From an uncultured Parcubacteria group bacterium (GTDB lineage: Bacteria; Patescibacteriota; Patescibacteriia; UBA9934; CAMTUG01), in the NCBI GenBank assembly GCA_947084965.1, contig CAMTUG010000001.1:276206-340205 (forward strand): DNA of 64,000 nt. Direction: 5' to 3'. The translations under genes were made by a program, and so were the position numbers. This document shows, piece after piece, positions 34,519 to 41,688 of the stretch. The notes beneath the pieces were generated by a model. It saw only the letters and a program-made list of their open reading frames with translations, was not told where the DNA came from and made no database searches. Each line of letters opens with the position of its first letter. The stretch's first letter is position 1.

Positions 34519-34605
34519 GTACTCTCTCCTCACCCAACGGAAGGGTTGGGCTACACCTAATTACATCAAAAAAATTCATCTTCGAAAAATTGTTTGTGGA
34601 TAAGT

Positions 34606-37128
34606 ATGCACGATAAGATCACCATCAAAGGCGCGCGCGAGCACAACCTAAAAAACATCTCGCTTGAGATGCCACGCAATAAACTTGTGTGCATCACCGG
34701 GCTTTCTGGATCAGGAAAGTCGAGTTTAGCGTTCGATACAATCTTTGCCGAAGGCCAGCGTCGTTACGTGGAGTCGTTGTCGGCCTACGCTCGGCAGTTT
34801 TTGGGACAGATGCAGAAGCCAGATGTCGATGAAATCGAAGGGTTATCCCCGGCGATTTCTATCGATCAAAAGGCGCATTCCGCCAACCCGCGTTCGACCG
34901 TGGCGACGATCACCGAAGTGTACGACTATCTGCGTGTGTTATTTGCGCGCGTCGGTCATCCCCACTGTCCCATCTGCAAGCGCGAGATTCAGAAGCTGAC
35001 CGTGGATGAGATGGTTGATTTGGTTATTGAAGAAAGTGGTAAGCAGAAAGGAGTAAGGACAGACACAAAAGGAAAGGAACTTCTCGTCCTGGCGCCGGTC
35101 GTGCGTGGTCGCAAAGGGAATTACTTTCAGTTGCTCTACGATCTTTATAACTCTGGGTTTGCTCGCGTCCGCATCGATGGCAAGGTTTTTTCTTTGTCCG
35201 AACGTATTGATCTCGCTCGATTTAAACAGCACACGATTGAAGTGATCGTCGACACGATCCCGGTGGTTGATCTTGCCACCAAGGAAGGTCGTCAGCGCTT
35301 GGCCGAAGCGATCGAAACGTCGATCAAGCACGGCGAAGATACGGTGCAAGTCATCTTCCCTGACAAAACTGAGCGCTTACTGTCAGCTAAGTTTTCTTGT
35401 CCGGATGATGGATTCTCGTTCCCGGAAATCGAACCGCGCCTGTTCAGTTTCAACTCACCGTATGGAGCCTGTCCTGATTGCACCGGGCTCGGCACGAAGG
35501 AGCTTTTTTCTGAGGACCTGTGCCCGAGCTGTCTTGGGATGCGTCTGCGTCGCGAATCGATGTTCGTGTGGCTTCCAGGTAATCGCTCGATTGTGGACGT
35601 GACGTTCATGTCGATAGACGAAGCGGTCAAATACTTTGATGAACTGACACTTAGCGAAAAGGAGATGGAGATCGCCACGACGATCTTAAAAGAGATCCGC
35701 AATCGTTTGCAATTCATGCTTTCGGTCGGGTTGCACTATCTGACACTCAATCGTATGGCTGGAACGCTTTCGGGTGGAGAAGCACAGCGTATTCGTTTGG
35801 CTTCACAAGTTGGAACGCGCCTGACAGGAGCGATGTATGTCCTTGATGAACCGACGATCGGCCTGCATCAGCGCGATAACGAACGGTTAATCGAAACGCT
35901 TCTCGAACTGCGCGACTTGGGCAACACCGTGATCGTTGTCGAACATGATGAAGACACGATTCGCGCTTCGGATTACATGATCGAAATCGGTCCGGGTGCT
36001 GGCGTCCACGGTGGGAATGTCATGGCGAGCGGCACCGTGCCGGAGATTTTTAAGGATAAAAAGTCGTTGACGGCGGCCTATTTGCGCGGGGACAAAAAGA
36101 TCCCAGTTCCAGAAAAGCGCCGCGCGCCGGGGCATGATGCGATCAGGATCCAGGGAGCGAAAGAAAATAACTTGAAGAATATCGACGTGGAAATTCCATT
36201 GCGTCGGTTTGTCTGCATCACCGGCGTCTCTGGTTCAGGGAAGTCGTCGTTGACCCGCGATATTTTGTATCGCGAACTGTCGCGTCGTTTGTACAGCTCG
36301 CGCGAAAAGCCTGGGGAGCACAAAGCCGTATTCGGAACGGATTACATCGATAAGTGTATTCTTGTGGACCAGTCAGCGATCGGCCGCACGCCGCGTTCAA
36401 ATCCAGCGACCTACACCGGTGCCTGGGGCCCGATTCGCGATATCTTTGCTGCTACGGCTGAAGCACGCTACCGCGGCTACAAGCCAGGACGGTTTAGTTT
36501 TAACACTCCGGGTGGACGCTGTGAAAACTGCGAAGGTCACGGGCTAATCGCCATTGAAATGCACTTCTTGCCAACGGTCTATGTGACCTGCGAGGTCTGC
36601 AAGGGCAAGCGCTTTGATCGTGAAACACTCGAGATCGAGTTCAAAGAAAAAAATATTCACGATATTTTGGAGATGACGATCGAAGAAGCCGAAGTTTTTT
36701 TCCGCGAGATTCCGTTGGTGCACGACAAACTCAAGACGCTCGTTGAAGTCGGACTCGGTTATCTGAAAGTCGGTCAAGGGGCGCCAACGCTTTCCGGTGG
36801 GGAAGCACAGCGTGTTAAACTCGCGGCGGAATTATCAAAGCGCCAAACGGGGCGGACGTTATATTTGCTCGATGAGCCGACGACCGGTCTGCACTTCGAG
36901 GACGTTAAGAATCTTCTGGAGGTGTTGCACAAGTTAGTCGATAAAGGAAATTCCGTCTTGGTGATCGAACACAACTTGGACGTGATCAAAACCGCGGACT
37001 GGATTATCGACCTCGGCCCCGAGGGGGGCGATCGCGGGGGCGAATTGGTTGCCTTCGGCACACCAGAAGATATTGTGCGATCTGCGCGATCGCACACGGG
37101 ACGCTATTTGAAGAAGTATCTAGCTTAG
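34606..37128 (+). CDS. uvrA: Excinuclease ABC subunit A (short form, 841 aa)
   Basis: Two ABC modules (GLSGSGKSS / GVSGSGKSS, two LSGGE signatures), zinc-finger Cys pairs. Confidence 0.9.
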
Positions 37129-37340
37129 CAACGTCGGCGGCGGAGGTGCGAGCTGACGAGTTCTCTTTTCGCGCGCAGTCGTGTCCTTTCTTAGAGACGA
37201 GCACGAAAAGAGTGTCAGCGAGACCGAGTACGACGACGTTTGGTCGCCCTCTCCACGCGCTTCGCAGAATCCCGCCGCGACATAGATTCTTGGCCATTAA
37301 TGTCGCGGACGTGATCCTGCTTCGCGGTGGATCGGGCGAC

Positions 37341-37736
37341 TTAGCTCGTTTTTGCTTTGTGCTTGAGCATTGTTTTGTGTCTTTCCGGCAGCGATTGCCA
37401 GAACAGAGCGATCGTTCCGGTGGCGAGTCCGATGTCGCGGACAGTAATTTCGTTGATACCAGAAACAATCAGAATGCCGACGAGATGCACGGTGGCGAGA
37501 AGGGCGACGACCCACGGCAACAGGTTGATGAGCATCATGAATCCGAGGATGATATCAAAAACCGCTGTGCCGAGAATCGTTTGCACCGGATCGATTGGGA
37601 TCAGTTCACGCACCCAAGGATTGATGAACGCGGCCCAAGTTTGTGGATCGCGGAAGATCAACACCCCGATCCAGATAAAGGTGATCCCCATCCCGACCCG
37701 CAAGATGTGATACGACGCGTTTGGTTTACCGTCCAT
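37341..37736 (-). CDS. DoxX-family membrane protein
   Basis: 4-TM DoxX-like small membrane protein. Confidence 0.55.
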   Translation of the reverse strand: MDGKPNASYHILRVGMGITFIWIGVLIFRDPQTWAAFINPWVRELIPIDPVQTILGTAVFDIILGFMMLINLLPWVVALLATVHLVGILIVSGINEITVRDIGLATGTIALFWQSLPERHKTMLKHKAKTS

Positions 37737-37742
37737 AATATG

Positions 37743-38177
37743 TTAGATGCGTGAAGTTAGAGCGGCGACGTCAAAGCCGCTGATGATAATGATCAGAGCC
37801 ATCAGACCGACGGTGAGCGAAGACATCAAGCACCAAAAGCACCAGTGTTTGACAATCTTCCATTGGATAAAGATGAGGACGAGCGACATGATCGCCGAGC
37901 CACCGACCATGAGTATCAGAAGTTTATTCCACAGATCTGTTGGTCCAACTTGGACGACGAACAGGCCGGAGATGATGCAGACGGCGACATAAAACCCAAA
38001 TCCGAGGATGTCGTTATGCACCCCGAACATACGGTTATACTTGCTTTCCAGGACCGCACGGCATCCGCCGCCGATCGGGCAGACCGGTTTCTCAGATGCG
38101 TAGCGTTTCTCGATAAGGTATGCTGTTTCTGCGATCCCGAACGCGGCCAGGGTGAAAAGAAGGGCGAGTGATGTCAT
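37743..38177 (-). CDS. Vitamin K epoxide reductase (VKOR)-family protein
   Basis: CPIGGGC loop cysteines and CFWC active-site CxxC within a TM helix. Confidence 0.65.
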   Translation of the reverse strand: MTSLALLFTLAAFGIAETAYLIEKRYASEKPVCPIGGGCRAVLESKYNRMFGVHNDILGFGFYVAVCIISGLFVVQVGPTDLWNKLLILMVGGSAIMSLVLIFIQWKIVKHWCFWCLMSSLTVGLMALIIIISGFDVAALTSRI

Positions 38178-38197
38178 AATGGGCTTATTGTAACACT

Positions 38198-38635
38198 ATG
38201 GAAGATGTACGAAAACTCGTGACCGAAGTTCTTGATGCTGGCTATTTGATGAGTTTAGCAACGATCGATGCATCCGGAGCGTGGGCGAGTGTCGTCGTTT
38301 TTATCCACGATGCGGATTTTAATTTGTACTGGTTGTCTCTCCCAACGCGCCGTCATTCCGTTGCTGTTGAGAACGATCCCCGTGCCGCGGCGACGATCAC
38401 GTTGGCTCAAAAACATGGCGACGAAAAAATCGGTTTGCAAGTTTCTGGTCGTGCGGAGCGACTCAGTTCTGCTCCAGCGGAGATCGTGGAAGCATATGGG
38501 CGTCGCATGCAAAAGACCTCGATCGACGGACAAGTTTTCGCGCCGGGTCAAGCTTGGTACGTCCTTCGCCCAACAAAGATCGACCTTATCCATCAACCGC
38601 TCTTCGGGTACGAAAAAAAGTTTCTTGAGCTGTGA
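38198..38635 (+). CDS. Pyridoxamine 5'-phosphate oxidase-like FMN-binding split-barrel protein
   Basis: YLMSLATIDASGAWASVVVFIHD..NLYWLS pattern. Confidence 0.6.
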   Translation: MEDVRKLVTEVLDAGYLMSLATIDASGAWASVVVFIHDADFNLYWLSLPTRRHSVAVENDPRAAATITLAQKHGDEKIGLQVSGRAERLSSAPAEIVEAYGRRMQKTSIDGQVFAPGQAWYVLRPTKIDLIHQPLFGYEKKFLEL

Positions 38636-39627
38636 TTGAATTTGTTTCACAACGCGCTGTGAGTGATTGGCTCCAAGACCATGTTGCGAAGTCAAAGGTT
38701 GTGTTGAAGCCTCTAACCGGCGGATTGTTAAATCAAAACTTGTTGGCGGACGTCGGTGATTCTCGTGTGGTGGTAAAAGTTTACGACGTCATGATGGACA
38801 CAGTAAAGGTGAAAGAGCTTCATCGAATGCTTGCCCACGCAGTGAAGGACGGTATTCCCGTCGCTCAACCAATTTTGGAAGGAAAGATTGATCGTCATGT
38901 TGTGGCCGTCTATCCGTTTATCAATGGAAAGCACCCGCCGCGTTATCGAAATACGCAATCAAGGATTCGAACGATGGGTGCGATGCTTGGAAAGATCGAT
39001 ACTTCACTCGAGTCGTTTCACTCTAAGGTGGAGCAGACAGATCGAGCGAAGCTTTTGCTGAGAATTAATCCTGAACGTTTTTTGTCGGAGATCAAAGACG
39101 TGCGAGCTTCACTGCGGGGCAAGCCGTCGTCATTGCAACGCATCGTGCGAGAAAATCTTGATCGACTTCAGAGAATCGCGGAAACGCATGACTGGCTGGA
39201 GCAGGGGATGGATAAGCTCCCGTTGCGGATGTGTCACGGTGATTATCACATCAAAAATGTGTTGATGCGCGGCGAGGAGATTACGGCGGTCCTCGATTGG
39301 GATAAAGCCGGGAAGGACTGGCGTGGCTTCGAGATCATGCGTTCGGTGATGTTTAATTGTCGACGTGACGACTCACATTTAAGCTGGCCGTTGGTCGAAA
39401 CGTATCTCAAGAGCTACAAGCGTCACGCACCTGCGCTCAGTGAGCTCGAGAAAGTTCTGGTTTTTGAATGTGGATTTCGCCGCGCGTTGTTTTCTTTGTG
39501 GTCGGTCAAGCAATACATTGCCGGAGAACAGAGCGTAGTCAGTAACTTTATCCGTCGCGTGCATTTGTTTCAGTCACTGGCAGAACATCGTGCTGAATAC
39601 GCCGAACGCATCGCGAAGTTGCTTTGA
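38632..39627 (+). CDS. Aminoglycoside/choline-kinase-like phosphotransferase (APH family)
   Basis: Brenner motif HGDYHIKNVL and LDWDKAG (DFG-equivalent). Confidence 0.7.
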   Translation: MIEFVSQRAVSDWLQDHVAKSKVVLKPLTGGLLNQNLLADVGDSRVVVKVYDVMMDTVKVKELHRMLAHAVKDGIPVAQPILEGKIDRHVVAVYPFINGKHPPRYRNTQSRIRTMGAMLGKIDTSLESFHSKVEQTDRAKLLLRINPERFLSEIKDVRASLRGKPSSLQRIVRENLDRLQRIAETHDWLEQGMDKLPLRMCHGDYHIKNVLMRGEEITAVLDWDKAGKDWRGFEIMRSVMFNCRRDDSHLSWPLVETYLKSYKRHAPALSELEKVLVFECGFRRALFSLWSVKQYIAGEQSVVSNFIRRVHLFQSLAEHRAEYAERIAKLL

Positions 39628-39644
39628 TTGTGCACAATTTACAA

Positions 39645-39673
39645 TTGACAAATGGAGTTTTTTCTGGTTAAAT
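39645..39673 (+). promoter_or_regulatory. Near-consensus sigma70 promoter (TTGACA-17-TTAAAT) driving the candidate ncRNA
   Basis: Hexamers read directly. Confidence 0.45.
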
Positions 39674-39679
39674 AGAGTG

Positions 39680-39944
39680 ACAATAAGGTAGTAGGGTGCA
39701 AAGGAAGACCCTCGAAATCATTTGATGATCTCGGGGGATTTTGTTTGTCGAGACTTGGGATCCGTGGGCCCTGATACGGTTATCCTGCTGAACCTCATCA
39801 ATTCGGCACGAGGGGTTCGACTCCCCTAGGGTCCACGGCTTCAGGTCTTGACCAAATGTCACTTTTTCTAGTAGGTTTAAATCGATGAGGTTCAGCTGAT
39901 GATACCTATCAGAAACAAAACAGAGCGCAATGGCGCTCTGTTTT
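39680..39944 (+). ncRNA. Candidate structured ncRNA (~265 nt) with a tRNA-like acceptor/T-arm module. Identity unresolved (tmRNA-like, tRNA-derived or novel)
   Basis: Promoter upstream and a strong terminator at 39917-39944 (aaaacagagcgc-aatg-gcgctctgtttt). A perfect T-arm AGGGG-TTCGACT-CCCCT is followed by the acceptor 3' strand AGGGTCC; the 5' strand GGGCCCT (39766-39772) pairs with it. A 13-nt long-range inverted repeat (gctgaacctcatc at 39787-39799, gatgaggttcagc at 39884-39896) is present, plus several local hairpins. Confidence 0.35.
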
Positions 39945-39968
39945 GCAACTCCGTGATAAAATAGTTTC

Positions 39969-41294
39969 ATGATTCCCAAATTCATCACCACCAAAAACGC
40001 TGAGCTTCCGGATAATCCGGGGGTGTATTTTTACTATGATACGAAAGGGAAGTTGCTGTACATCGGCAAGGCGACGAGTTTGAAAAAACGCGTGGGATCA
40101 TATTTCACCAAAGCGCATGATAATCGCATCGCCGATTTGGTAACGAAGATTGCGCGGATTGATTACATCGAAACACCGACCGTTATCGAAGCGCTAGTGC
40201 TTGAAGCGAATCAGATCAAAGCGCATACGCCGCCGTACAATGTTTTGCAGCGCGATGACAAAAGTTTTCTGTATGTGGCGATCACCAATGAAGACTTTCC
40301 CAAGCCGACGTTGCTTCGCGGGTTGGAGTTGCAGCGCATGGGAGTTGATCCGTTTGCGCCGACGCTCTCGCTCAAAGCCAAGCGCAAGTTCAAGGCGATT
40401 TATGGTCCGTACACCAGCGGGCATTCGTTGAAGATCGCTCTCGATCTGATTCGTAAGAGCATTCCTTGGACAACCTGTGAACCGCCAGAAGTGACGGGAG
40501 TAGCCAAAGCCTGTTTTTATCGCCACCTTGGCCAGTGTCCAGGAGTTTGTACAGGAGAGATCACCAAGCGTGATTATGCGAAGATTATTCGCAGTCTGAT
40601 GCTGTTTTTTGAGGGCAAAAAGGAACAGATCATACGCCAGATGCGTCGGGAGATGAAGTCTGCGGCGAATGATTTAGATTTTGAACGCGCCGCGGAATTG
40701 AAGCGTAAGACTTTCGCGTTAACGCATATTCAAGACGTGGCGTTGGTGAGTCACGAAGAGCCGTTGCCGTACAATCGCGAGTCGAAGCCGTACATTGATA
40801 TTCTCGGGCGCATCGAAGCGTACGACATCAGTAATATTTCTGGCACCTCCGCAGTTGGATCGATGGTTGTGTTTGATGACGGGAAGCCAGCCAAACAGCA
40901 CTATCGCAAGTTTAAAATCAAAACCGTGGTTGGCGCGAACGACGTGGCGTGTTTAGAGGAGGTGATGCGTCGTCGTTTGGCGCGTGCGGAGCTGCAGCCA
41001 AAAGCTTGGCCGTTGCCAGAGCTGATGGTGATTGATGGCGGCAAGCCGCAAGTCAATCGGGTGCAAGAAGTGCTCGATGAGTTGCAGGTTGCACTGCCGA
41101 TTGTTGGGCTGGCCAAAGGATTTGATCGCAAGCAGGACGTGTTGATTTTTGATCCTGCCAATCGCGAGTTAAAGCGTGTCGTCGAAACGAACAAAGAGAT
41201 CCTCCAGCGCGCCCGCGACGAAGCGCATCGCTTTGCTATCAGCTACCATCGTAAACTACGAGGAAAACGCTCATTATTGGGCCCTCATACTTGA
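39969..41294 (+). CDS. uvrC: Excinuclease ABC subunit C (short form, 441 aa, lacks C-terminal HhH region)
   Basis: GIY-YIG N-terminus (GVYFYYDTKGKLLYIGKATSLKKR), Cys-rich region, UVR domain, RNase H-like endonuclease domain. Confidence 0.85.
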   Translation: MIPKFITTKNAELPDNPGVYFYYDTKGKLLYIGKATSLKKRVGSYFTKAHDNRIADLVTKIARIDYIETPTVIEALVLEANQIKAHTPPYNVLQRDDKSFLYVAITNEDFPKPTLLRGLELQRMGVDPFAPTLSLKAKRKFKAIYGPYTSGHSLKIALDLIRKSIPWTTCEPPEVTGVAKACFYRHLGQCPGVCTGEITKRDYAKIIRSLMLFFEGKKEQIIRQMRREMKSAANDLDFERAAELKRKTFALTHIQDVALVSHEEPLPYNRESKPYIDILGRIEAYDISNISGTSAVGSMVVFDDGKPAKQHYRKFKIKTVVGANDVACLEEVMRRRLARAELQPKAWPLPELMVIDGGKPQVNRVQEVLDELQVALPIVGLAKGFDRKQDVLIFDPANRELKRVVETNKEILQRARDEAHRFAISYHRKLRGKRSLLGPHT

Positions 41295-41319
41295 CAGGGA
41301 TCGATTTTTGCTTTATCTT
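41291..41319 (+). promoter_or_regulatory. Putative sigma70 promoter of cassette gene (TTGACA-17-TATCTT), overlapping the uvrC stop
   Basis: Read directly. Confidence 0.4.
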
Positions 41320-41343
41320 TACCCTCCACCCCAAGGAGTCTCA

Positions 41344-41688
41344 ATGTCCGAGTCCGTCACCGCCTTCCGTCCCGATCCGGCCAAGATCTACGAGATCACG
41401 CTCCTCGAGGGCGACGTGGATCAGATCTGGAACCTCGCCCACGAAGGGGGTCGTTCGATCCTGCTTCTCGTGCGAGACCAGGCCGATCCCGCCGCGCCCG
41501 AGCAGGGGCTCTCCCTCATCCTCTACTCCGTCGCCTGGGAGGGCGGCGACAAGGAAAACCACCCGAACGAGGTCGTCGTCCGCGGCCGCATCCACGGCCG
41601 TACCGCGGACGAGCCGAACCCGGTGATCGGGTTTTGCTGGGACGACAAGTCCCGGACCGGTCTCCTCAACGTGGTCCTCCCGGTCTAG
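41344..41688 (+). CDS. Hypothetical 114-aa protein, extreme GC3 (cassette gene)
   Basis: AAGGAG SD 5 nt upstream of ATG 41344. G/C-ending codons dominate. Followed by terminator 41744-41802. Confidence 0.6.
   Translation: MSESVTAFRPDPAKIYEITLLEGDVDQIWNLAHEGGRSILLLVRDQADPAAPEQGLSLILYSVAWEGGDKENHPNEVVVRGRIHGRTADEPNPVIGFCWDDKSRTGLLNVVLPV

Follow-up and report, generated by a model that had tools for sequence, protein, structure and literature searches.

A candidate two-RNA module pairing a tmRNA-like domain with a complementary RNA, dispersed among genomes of the Patescibacteria type

In permuted genes for transfer-messenger RNA (tmRNA), an acceptor piece (P2 3' strand, T arm, acceptor 3' strand) precedes the coding piece (acceptor 5' strand, P2 5' strand, tag). 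Jakobid mitochondria carry a tmRNA consisting of the tRNA-like domain (TLD) only, without the tag-coding part; it is organellar, single-copy and placed at a fixed locus (mt-tmRNA in Rfam), tagless rescue of ribosomes has been proposed for it, and we know of no partner antisense RNA (anti-RNA). Another tRNA mimic, YrlA, has no free CCA end and is joined to a Ro-binding stem through the equivalent of its anticodon stem; its gene adjoins rsr. In the antisense pairs IS10 RNA-IN/RNA-OUT and hok/sok, a free 5' end pairs with a U-turn loop and one side of a bulged stem-loop over about 35 nucleotides (nt), and U-turn loops are the nucleation sites of such classical pairs. Here we describe an RNA locus that combines features of these systems. 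It lies at positions 39645-39945 of the window, the whole stretch of 64,000 nt that we analysed from contig CAMTUG010000001.1 of an uncultured Parcubacteria group bacterium, between genes for an APH-family kinase and for UvrC.

We consider it about evenly probable that this locus is a copy of a two-RNA module, dispersed in genomes of the candidate phyla radiation (CPR)/Patescibacteria type, in which a mimic of the tmRNA TLD is accompanied by a cis-encoded anti-RNA. Structure, conservation and distribution are observed in the sequences described below, from which we infer transcription of the module, pairing of its RNAs in vivo, their processing and any function. A first-pass annotation had proposed a promoter- and terminator-bounded non-coding RNA with an embedded tRNA-like module, possibly a tRNA-derived regulatory RNA or a novel tRNA-like element.

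Its UvrC relatives place the window in Candidatus Uhrbacteria (CPR/Patescibacteria), and in most of them uvrA, VKOR or APH directly adjoins uvrC. At 80 Uhrbacteria uvrC loci, neither nhmmer with the element as query nor a regular expression for the T arm and acceptor found a homologue. The closest UvrC relative (P0022, contig L201; 80% UvrC identity), which was reached through UvrC and independently of any RNA pattern, carries a clear homologue of the element upstream of uvrC. Between the window and L201, the acceptor stem changes from GGGCCCU/AGGGUCC to GGGGGUA/UACCUCC with G1-C72, G2-C71, G3·U70 and A73 kept, and the first pair of the T stem changes from A-U to C-G. The long-range complement of L201 is wholly different in sequence yet complementary (GGUUAGUCACCU / AGGUGACUAACC). 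The setting between kinase and uvrC, to which the first-pass annotation had drawn attention, proved to have no link with the element, as relatives with APH-uvrC or uvrA-uvrC adjacency do not have it.

From blocks common to the window copy and L201 we derived a scan pattern (CCGTGGG, a gap of 35-60 nt, GGTTCRANTCC, 7 nt, TCCACGG). Scanning metagenomes with it retrieved 99 loci, about 60 of them with distinct cores of 66-70 nt in a single architecture; the remainder were ordinary tRNA-Ala genes in a few cases and otherwise odd sequences. Groundwater of the Hainich and Rifle sites is among the sources of the loci. The resulting alignment of 61 members holds the window copy, L201 and 59 pattern-found relatives. 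RNAalifold assigns 23 base pairs to the family, 17 of which show compensatory changes. When the window copy and L201 were left out of the alignment, paired cells amounted to 93.5% compared with 71% in shuffles, and the covariation score was 0.639 compared with 0.20 in shuffles (none of 500 reached 0.639) and 0.09-0.17 for slid partners. Conservation or covariation of the helices across homologous loci had been set beforehand as one of the tests that could refute the tRNA-like reading, and the helices are kept and covary. The window thus holds a genuine non-canonical tRNA-like RNA locus, and to this extent the suggestion of a novel tRNA-like or regulatory element is borne out; as a whole it is supported in part.

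A covariance model (R2), built from the 59 relatives without the window copy and L201, matched both of these over their full length, the window copy with 38.9 bits (E 1.5e-8, model positions 1-68) and L201 with 59.6 bits, as against at most 12.3 bits for the four genuine tRNAs of the window. These scores make the window copy a clear, though divergent, family member. It is the only copy within the 64 kb, and no copy was found in 82 Uhrbacteria uvrC loci. A first model, run over the loci, recovered second copies on L267, L221/L259 and L229 and a tandem pair in L246, none of which fits the scan pattern. These extra copies keep G1-C72, G2-C71, G3·U70 and A73, and in L221 and L246 the innermost four base pairs (bp) of the pairing between leader and trailer covary from CCGU/ACGG to CUGU/ACAG. 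Viral contigs contained no match to an exact 24-mer of the element and a single, unrelated match to the family pattern; a loose tRNA-Ala-type pattern returned unrelated tRNAs among the matches listed.

A canonical tRNA has a D stem of 3-4 bp and a 5-bp anticodon stem with a 7-nt loop; the element differs from it in its arm of 7 bp with a 9-nt loop and in missing positions 8-9. As the first-pass annotation had stated, its D and anticodon arms are not of the standard kind, but a reduced D hairpin and the 7-bp arm are present. ARAGORN and Rfam at the gathering threshold (canonical tRNA, RF00005, 29 bits) call only the four ordinary tRNA genes of the window and no tRNA or tmRNA at the element, in agreement with the earlier judgement that it is not a canonical tRNA. 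All four of those genes are followed by an encoded CCA. The 3' end of the element reads UCCA and then CGG, so that no CCA is encoded, and the trailer pairs with the leader.

In a permissive Rfam scan tRNA-Sec is the best match to the window copy, with 24.1 bits where the threshold is 47 bits, and at 13 member loci no family reaches threshold. The best permissive match of members is the tmRNA model RF00023, which aligns with them end to end (positions 1-374) through positions 1-30 and 345-374, with about 306 internal positions deleted. Scores range from 16.9 to 37.8 bits (E 1e-9 to 1e-12 in an 8-kb search), and no scored member reaches the gathering score of 47 bits. Members show the traits of the tmRNA TLD, namely an acceptor stem with G3·U70, a D-loop analogue and a T arm. 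Given the end-to-end match, the RNA is therefore best described as a tmRNA TLD whose P2 helix is closed by a loop. The exclusion of tmRNA in the first-pass annotation holds for the standard and permuted forms, but the family does match both ends of the tmRNA model below threshold. Since Rfam (v15) holds no family that reaches threshold, and we found no description in the literature searched on tRNA-like RNAs or tmRNA in Patescibacteria, Parcubacteria or inteins, the RNA family appears to be new and previously uncatalogued.

Several known RNAs were tried and rejected. Only 38 nt separate the acceptor strand from the T arm; by eye, the flanks contain no conserved frame for an mRNA-like domain or tag. 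The order of parts does not fit a standard tmRNA. We looked for tag frames in leader, spacer and anti-RNA as well; since the distance from the -10 hexamer to the complement varies, none of them is conserved. Circular permutation of tmRNA does not yield the order of acceptor 5' strand, D analogue, arm, T arm, acceptor 3' strand and complement either, and Rfam gave no hit to a permuted tmRNA in the window. That the element decodes as a tRNA with an unusual anticodon is unlikely because the loop is mostly 8 nt long and has a pyrimidine at the would-be position 37. For YrlA and Y RNA there is no Rfam match, and no rsr is found among the window neighbours uvrA, VKOR, PNPOx, APH and uvrC. Run over all the DNA retrieved, ARAGORN called tmRNAs in unrelated viral loci and otherwise in L219 and L243 alone, two loci that carry canonical tRNA-Ala genes, not the element. 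A tblastn search with Escherichia coli SmpB gave no match in the window or the loci and is uninformative. We also noted that L216 holds two tRNA-like RNAs in tandem (1326-1404 and 1417-1483), the second being a 66-nt TLD-only RNA (GGGGGUAUCAGGUUCGAC...GGACGGGGGUUCAAUCCCUCUACCUCCA) that has the top score of all with the tmRNA model (37.8 bits) and does not have the family architecture.

Beside the TLD, the second recurrent part of the family is a promoter with a complement behind it. Just past the TLD, 50 of the 61 members have a near-consensus internal promoter (TTGACA-N17-TATAAT or TATACT), compared with 2 expected from shuffles. The complement sets in 5-10 nt past the -10 hexamer, mostly 7-8 nt, which is where transcription is expected to start. 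It covaries across the family, and perfect complementarity extends over at least 11 nt in 40 of the 61, with a median of 12 nt as against 6 nt in shuffles. The whole duplex averages about 34 bp, including about five G·U pairs and usually one bulge; on the TLD side it takes in the loop, the arm's 5' strand, the D hairpin and some or all of the 5' acceptor strand. Its median energy is -49 kcal/mol, compared with -38.7 kcal/mol for the complementary strands, and the plus strand is the more stable one in 57 of 61 members. The targeted arm is a 9-bp stem, usually with one bulged base and a 7-8-nt loop of the form N-U-U-R-N-C-A.

Most members have, in addition, an extended -10 promoter (TGnTATAAT) with a predicted start about 5 nt before G1, and in most relatives the module is closed by a terminator of the form CCAAAAnCCGC...GCGGnUUUUUGG. 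As this terminator lies 30-40 nt past the complement, a length of about 75 nt would result for the second RNA. The arrangement varies: the anti-RNA unit stands upstream of the TLD, behind TTGACA-N17-TTAAAT, in L217, L222, L234, L288, L291 and L295, and on both sides of it in L279 and L294. Neither RNA contains a conserved open reading frame (ORF) and the downstream genes on the plus strand are mutually unrelated, which gives no sign of a type I toxin-antitoxin system or of an mRNA under antisense control, in either of which one partner codes for a protein. A 9-mer resembling a DnaA box, TTATCCACA, occurs with at most one mismatch in 20 of the 61 members, as against 0.8 expected from shuffles. 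It sits about 10-12 nt past A73 and just upstream of the internal -35 hexamer (for example in L214, L220, L251, L252 and L283); the window copy has none.

The window copy itself possesses an internal promoter-like site, a complement 6 nt on and a terminator, its -10 hexamer being weaker than in most members, and the predicted duplex between TLD and anti-RNA has 30 pairs and -40.4 kcal/mol. The perfect 13-nt long-range inverted repeat seen at first pass is indeed present and widens to 33 nt at 76% complementarity. It had been taken for a helix within one fold; instead, it forms the core of about 30 bp of complementarity to a second RNA segment behind the internal promoter. Because of that position, two or three transcription units are probable, in place of the single transcript of about 265 nt proposed earlier. 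The coordinates of all features are collected in Table 1.

Table 1. Coordinates of the RNA locus and its parts in the window
Feature	Position	Strand	Basis or remark
Upstream sigma70-like promoter	TTGACA 39645-39650, 17-nt spacer, TTAAAT 39668-39673	+	Read from sequence
Leader hairpin CCCUCGAAAUCAUUUGAUGAUCUCGGGGG, then U-rich tract AUUUUGUUUG	39709-39747	+	Minimum-free-energy fold
Acceptor-stem extension, 5' strand UCGAGACUUGGGAUCCGU	39748-39765	+	Pairs with 39835-39852; minimum-free-energy fold
Acceptor-stem extension, 3' strand CGGCUUCAGGUCUUGAC	39836-39852	+	Overlaps internal promoter -35 hexamer; minimum-free-energy fold
TLD, 70 nt	39766-39835	+	Cloverleaf fold; no CCA encoded
TLD acceptor stem, 7 bp	GGGCCCU 39766-39772 / AGGGUCC 39828-39834	+	Third pair G3·U70; A73 at 39835
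TLD mini D hairpin GAUA-CGGU-UAUC	39773-39784	+	Fold of core
TLD long arm, 7 bp, 9-nt loop	39786-39808, loop 39793-39801	+	Fold of core
TLD T arm AGGGG-UUCGACU-CCCCU	39811-39827	+	Read from sequence, canonical
Internal promoter-like site	TTGACC 39848-39853, 18-nt spacer, TAGGTT 39872-39877	+	Positional homologue of family promoter
Anti-RNA segment	39880-39912	+	Complementary to TLD 5' half 39771-39803; 33 nt, 76% complementary
Perfect 13-nt inverted repeat	39788-39800 / 39884-39896	+	Core of anti-RNA complementarity; downstream arm starts 6 nt past -10 hexamer
Intrinsic terminator hairpin, 13-bp stem, 4-nt loop	39916-39945	+	A run and U run flank; U run within stem 3' strand

RNAfold gave z = -7.45 for 39670-39955, so the structure of the locus lies well beyond chance; the plus strand folds with -92.4 kcal/mol and 13 G·U pairs, the minus strand with -71.0 kcal/mol and 4 G·U pairs. 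The boundaries and the core given by the first-pass annotation were found again. Its upstream consensus promoter (39645-39673) recurs as a TTGACA-N17-TTAAAT layout at the equivalent site of four relatives (L295, L234, L222 and L207); a consensus scan had missed it because that scan demands A at position 2 of the -10 hexamer. The intrinsic terminator was located as a 13-bp stem and is kept in L201, and the canonical T arm with the 7-nt strand that pairs with GGGCCCU upstream was read at 39811-39834 and 39766-39772.

Together with L201, L207, L235, L239, L258, L266 and L278, the window copy forms a subfamily in which no promoter adjoins the TLD. Instead, a promoter lies upstream, with a terminator-like hairpin and a U tract behind it, and the anti-RNA unit lies downstream. 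The acceptor stem carries an extension, about 18 bp in the window copy and made of leader and trailer, that covaries among the seven relatives and whose 3' strand holds the internal promoter's -35 hexamer; in L201, TTGACC-N17-TATTAT stands where the window copy has its internal promoter-like site. The leader hairpin with its U tract looks like an intrinsic terminator or attenuator ahead of the TLD. Its sequence is kept in L201, and a GC-rich hairpin with a U tract followed by (U)CGAG takes its place in L207, L235, L239, L258, L266 and L278. L201 and L202 (from two independent Logan assemblies, SRR8931243 and SRR8931244) break at the identical base in this hairpin, 344 nt upstream of uvrC, which may be a repeat- or structure-related assembly break.

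Some further observations concern the surroundings of the locus. The interval had been described as containing no ORF. There is one on the minus strand, a TTG-start ORF of 108 aa (39668-39994) that runs antisense over the whole element and 26 nt into uvrC, but it has no Pfam match, its frame is open in the window copy alone among family members, and it is probably spurious. In most Uhrbacteria uvrA adjoins uvrC; in the window (region 34594-39627, set against L001-L080), four genes (for a 202-aa unknown protein, VKOR, a PNPOx-like protein and the APH-family kinase) and the RNA locus separate the two. The nearest homologue of the kinase among 5.8 billion proteins is 50% identical. UvrC (39969-41294) has 441 aa, and all its relatives are likewise short, matching query residues 1 to about 435. 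An ORF of 170 aa without a Pfam match (41176-41688) overlaps the 3' end of uvrC in another frame and is kept in L001 with 36% identity.

The gene neighbourhoods of family loci are unrelated to each other, and the element is often found on the opposite strand or within ORFs. Across the module, a reverse-strand frame is open in about a third of the members (21% plus 16%), compared with 0-2% for each of the other four frames; two reverse frames are used, in which the T arm translates as G-I-E-P-P or G-N-R-T-P. Copies lie in frame and free of stops inside long opposite-strand ORFs in L214, L220, L263, L212, L280, L262, L298 and L238; the copy of L214 (8889-8963, minus strand) is the same as in L305 and L306. 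In a host GyrA mini-intein, the linker between the splicing blocks is exactly the element, and public annotations show the ORF as a single gene of 1042 aa with the Pfam domains DNA_topoisoIV, Intein_splicing, DNA_topoisoIV and DNA_gyraseA_C. Other host ORFs encode a second intein-containing protein and proteins with DUF2341/LamG and DUF4012. IS200-like Y1_Tnp genes stand within 3 kb of 11 of the 99 family loci, in six distinct contexts, as against none of the 80 Uhrbacteria uvrC loci. The family loci concerned are L209, L221, L247, L262, L298 and the L218 group (L218, L226, L228, L270, L281 and L292), in which one lies on each side. Unrelated contexts, intragenic copies, Y1 genes and patchy presence in close relatives argue that the module is dispersed and probably mobile. 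Anchored alignments show conservation from the extended -10 hexamer to the terminator, and neither terminal inverted repeats nor target duplications were recognised in them; no conserved downstream gene points to an autonomous parent element. Genes for PF05635, the four-helix-bundle protein of 23S rRNA intervening sequences, recur near L241, L220 and L297.

We propose the following course of events for the module. RNA 1 would be a TLD mimic of 67-70 nt with the alanine identity set in its acceptor stem (G1-C72, G2-C71, G3·U70, A73), a GG-containing mini D hairpin and a canonical T arm, in which a long bulged arm with a U-turn loop replaces the mRNA-like and pseudoknot body of tmRNA. RNA 2 is predicted to start at the internal sigma70-type promoter a few dozen bases downstream and to end at the shared terminator, and the 30-35 nt at its 5' end form the complement of the loop and of the TLD's entire 5' half. 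With this free 5' end, RNA 2 would nucleate on the U-turn loop, and pairing would then zip through the arm and the D hairpin into the acceptor stem, unfolding the TLD and yielding a long duplex that is a plausible substrate for RNase III. In this way the level of folded TLD would be governed by the anti-RNA, by a logic like that of IS10 RNA-IN/RNA-OUT or hok/sok. In the window copy, where the TLD has no promoter of its own, transcription would reach it from the upstream promoter through the terminator-like leader hairpin. By analogy, the folded TLD most likely mimics tRNA or tmRNA towards the translation or ribosome-rescue machinery (AlaRS, SmpB, EF-Tu, RNase P), and the retained alanine identity set speaks for aminoacylation. 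The outcome for the host may be helpful or selfish, in a toxin/antitoxin-like manner.

A number of points weigh against this proposal. The missing CCA and the pairing of trailer with leader argue against simple maturation into an RNA that can be aminoacylated. Every score with the tmRNA model is below the gathering score, and for the window copy the best model of the clan is tRNA-Sec. That copy also has a weak internal -10 hexamer (TAGGTT), and its duplex contains one G·U pair and shows no strand preference. The promoters and terminators are sequence predictions only. Selection for hairpins on one strand could also act on single-stranded DNA, and IS200-like Y1 transposase genes do stand near six distinct family loci. 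Finally, the way the scan was built left the GGG...UCCA ends, the CCGU/ACGG flanks and the T loop no room to vary in 59 of the 61 aligned sequences. Since the scan pattern fixes the GGG...UCCA, the 4 bp between leader and trailer and the T loop, we do not count them as conservation, and independent support for such features is confined to L201 and the five extra copies.

The selfish outcome can be carried further, to a protein-free addiction or defence module made of two RNAs. Here a stable TLD mimic would engage or poison ribosome rescue or alanylation, a shorter-lived RNA antitoxin, made from its own promoter and flanked by DnaA-box-like sequences in many copies, would restrain it, and a unit of about 250 bp would spread in CPR genomes and persist inside inteins and surface-protein genes. 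We put this forward tentatively, as a possibility well below even probability.

The element might instead be a housekeeping minimal tmRNA, whose TLD is matured by RNase P, 3' trimming and CCA addition, charged with alanine, and frees stalled ribosomes with SmpB and without tagging, while the anti-RNA tunes its level. The end-to-end match to the tmRNA model with its middle deleted fits such a role, as do G3·U70 and A73, kept also outside the scan pattern, the single copy in 64 kb, and a U at position -1, which bacterial RNase P favours. However, CCA is not encoded here, whereas the tRNA genes of this genome encode it, and the element is non-syntenic, standing upstream of uvrC in the closest relative alone. 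Some contigs hold two copies, including a tandem pair, and others hold copies inside inteins and surface-protein ORFs; moreover, a dedicated inhibitor RNA with a strong promoter of its own would be unusual for a housekeeping RNA. We regard a minimal tmRNA as unlikely.

Distinctly unlikely, in our view, is a primarily DNA-level mobile element akin to MITEs (miniature transposable elements with inverted repeats), repetitive extragenic palindrome doublets forming hairpins (REPINs) or Rickettsia palindromic elements (RPEs). A trans-acting transposase, such as one of the nearby IS200-like Y1 type, would read the conserved hairpins in single-stranded DNA, and the RNA traits of the element would be a legacy of a tmRNA or tRNA fragment. 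The dispersed contexts, in-frame insertions in ORFs and inteins, contigs with a second copy, the uneven occurrence among close relatives and the Y1_Tnp genes, two of which flank the element in the L218 group, are all as expected from such an element. Terminal inverted repeats and target duplications, on the other hand, were not recognised in the anchored alignments, and conservation runs exactly from promoter to terminator. A pair of near-consensus promoters, the consensus of the T loop and the identity set for alanine suit an RNA rather than a transposase substrate, and mobility is in any case compatible with a function of the RNA.

The remaining explanations are rejected on account of the family contexts, the strand-specific G·U pairing and the covariation. 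An invertible promoter switch would use the arms of the inverted repeat as recombination sites around the internal promoter, to be flipped by a site-specific recombinase. A perfect inverted repeat of 12-16 bp does bracket a segment of about 100 bp with a strong promoter, and it has a partly conserved TTATCA/TTGTCA core. Yet the repeat sequences are nearly all different between copies, complementarity reaches about 34 bp by way of G·U pairs with the plus strand favoured in 57 of 61, the downstream arm has no second half-site, no recombinase gene recurs nearby, and the covarying cloverleaf would be left unexplained; we hold this to be very improbable. A leader or attenuator of uvrC, or an element of the kinase 3' untranslated region, whose tRNA-like fold governs read-through of the terminator at 39916-39945, would account for the succession of promoter, structured RNA and terminator with the uvrC ATG 24 nt on, but it is extremely improbable: the gene contexts of the family contradict it, with members that have unrelated neighbours and frequently lie within ORFs or on the other strand, a leader of this sort is missing from Uhrbacteria in which uvrA or APH adjoins uvrC, and neither alternative fold competes with the terminator stem. 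Least of all can we credit a tRNA or tmRNA gene that has lost its function and survives as a decaying pseudogene or as the remnant of an att site, for although tRNA and tmRNA genes are common integration sites, and the element is missed by ARAGORN and by Rfam at threshold and has no CCA, this is contradicted by compensatory changes in 17 of 23 pairs over about 60 distinct copies, by the conserved partner RNA, promoters and terminator, and by retention of the element between genomes at 80% UvrC identity.

If the two-RNA reading is true, CPR/Patescibacteria hold a widespread family of small RNAs that stays below threshold in every Rfam model, and a natural TLD-only derivative of tmRNA exists with its own complementary RNA. 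What a tmRNA without a message does, be it rescue, decoy or toxin, would become testable with natural variants and an inhibitor. An all-RNA regulatory pair built on a tRNA mimic would be a new architecture, and a selfish RNA-RNA module would border on a new category. It would also follow that such an RNA locus can sit, translated in antisense, within inteins and essential genes of ultra-small genomes. Model R2 can be used to annotate family loci, which standard tRNA and tmRNA finders miss.

In comparison with known systems, the element shares with tmRNA (RF00023) an acceptor stem of 7 bp that carries G3·U70 and A73, a D-loop analogue that contains GG and directly follows the acceptor strand, a canonical T arm and a helix at the position of P2a. 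It differs from tmRNA in having no mRNA-like domain, tag frame, pseudoknots or CCA, in closing the helix with a 7-9-nt loop, and in the presence of a complementary RNA. With the jakobid TLD-only tmRNA, as described, it has in common a TLD without a tag, whereas the element is bacterial, dispersed and sometimes intragenic. Like YrlA, as described, it is a tRNA mimic inside a longer helix, but here it is the acceptor stem that is extended. With IS10 and hok/sok it shares complementarity of a 5' end to a loop over about 35 nt and the expectation of a stable structured partner; those pairs are encoded on opposite strands and control an mRNA for transposase or toxin, whereas in the element both RNAs come from the same strand through an inverted repeat and neither is coding. 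Rickettsia palindromic elements and Correia elements are small mobile repeats tolerated in genes (PMC2229807, PMC10969869). They resemble the element in being short, protein-less and structured, and in occurring between genes as well as in frame within them, some with promoters. The element stands apart from them in that terminal inverted repeats were not identified, and in its promoter-to-terminator RNA locus, its covarying cloverleaf and its apparently low copy number.

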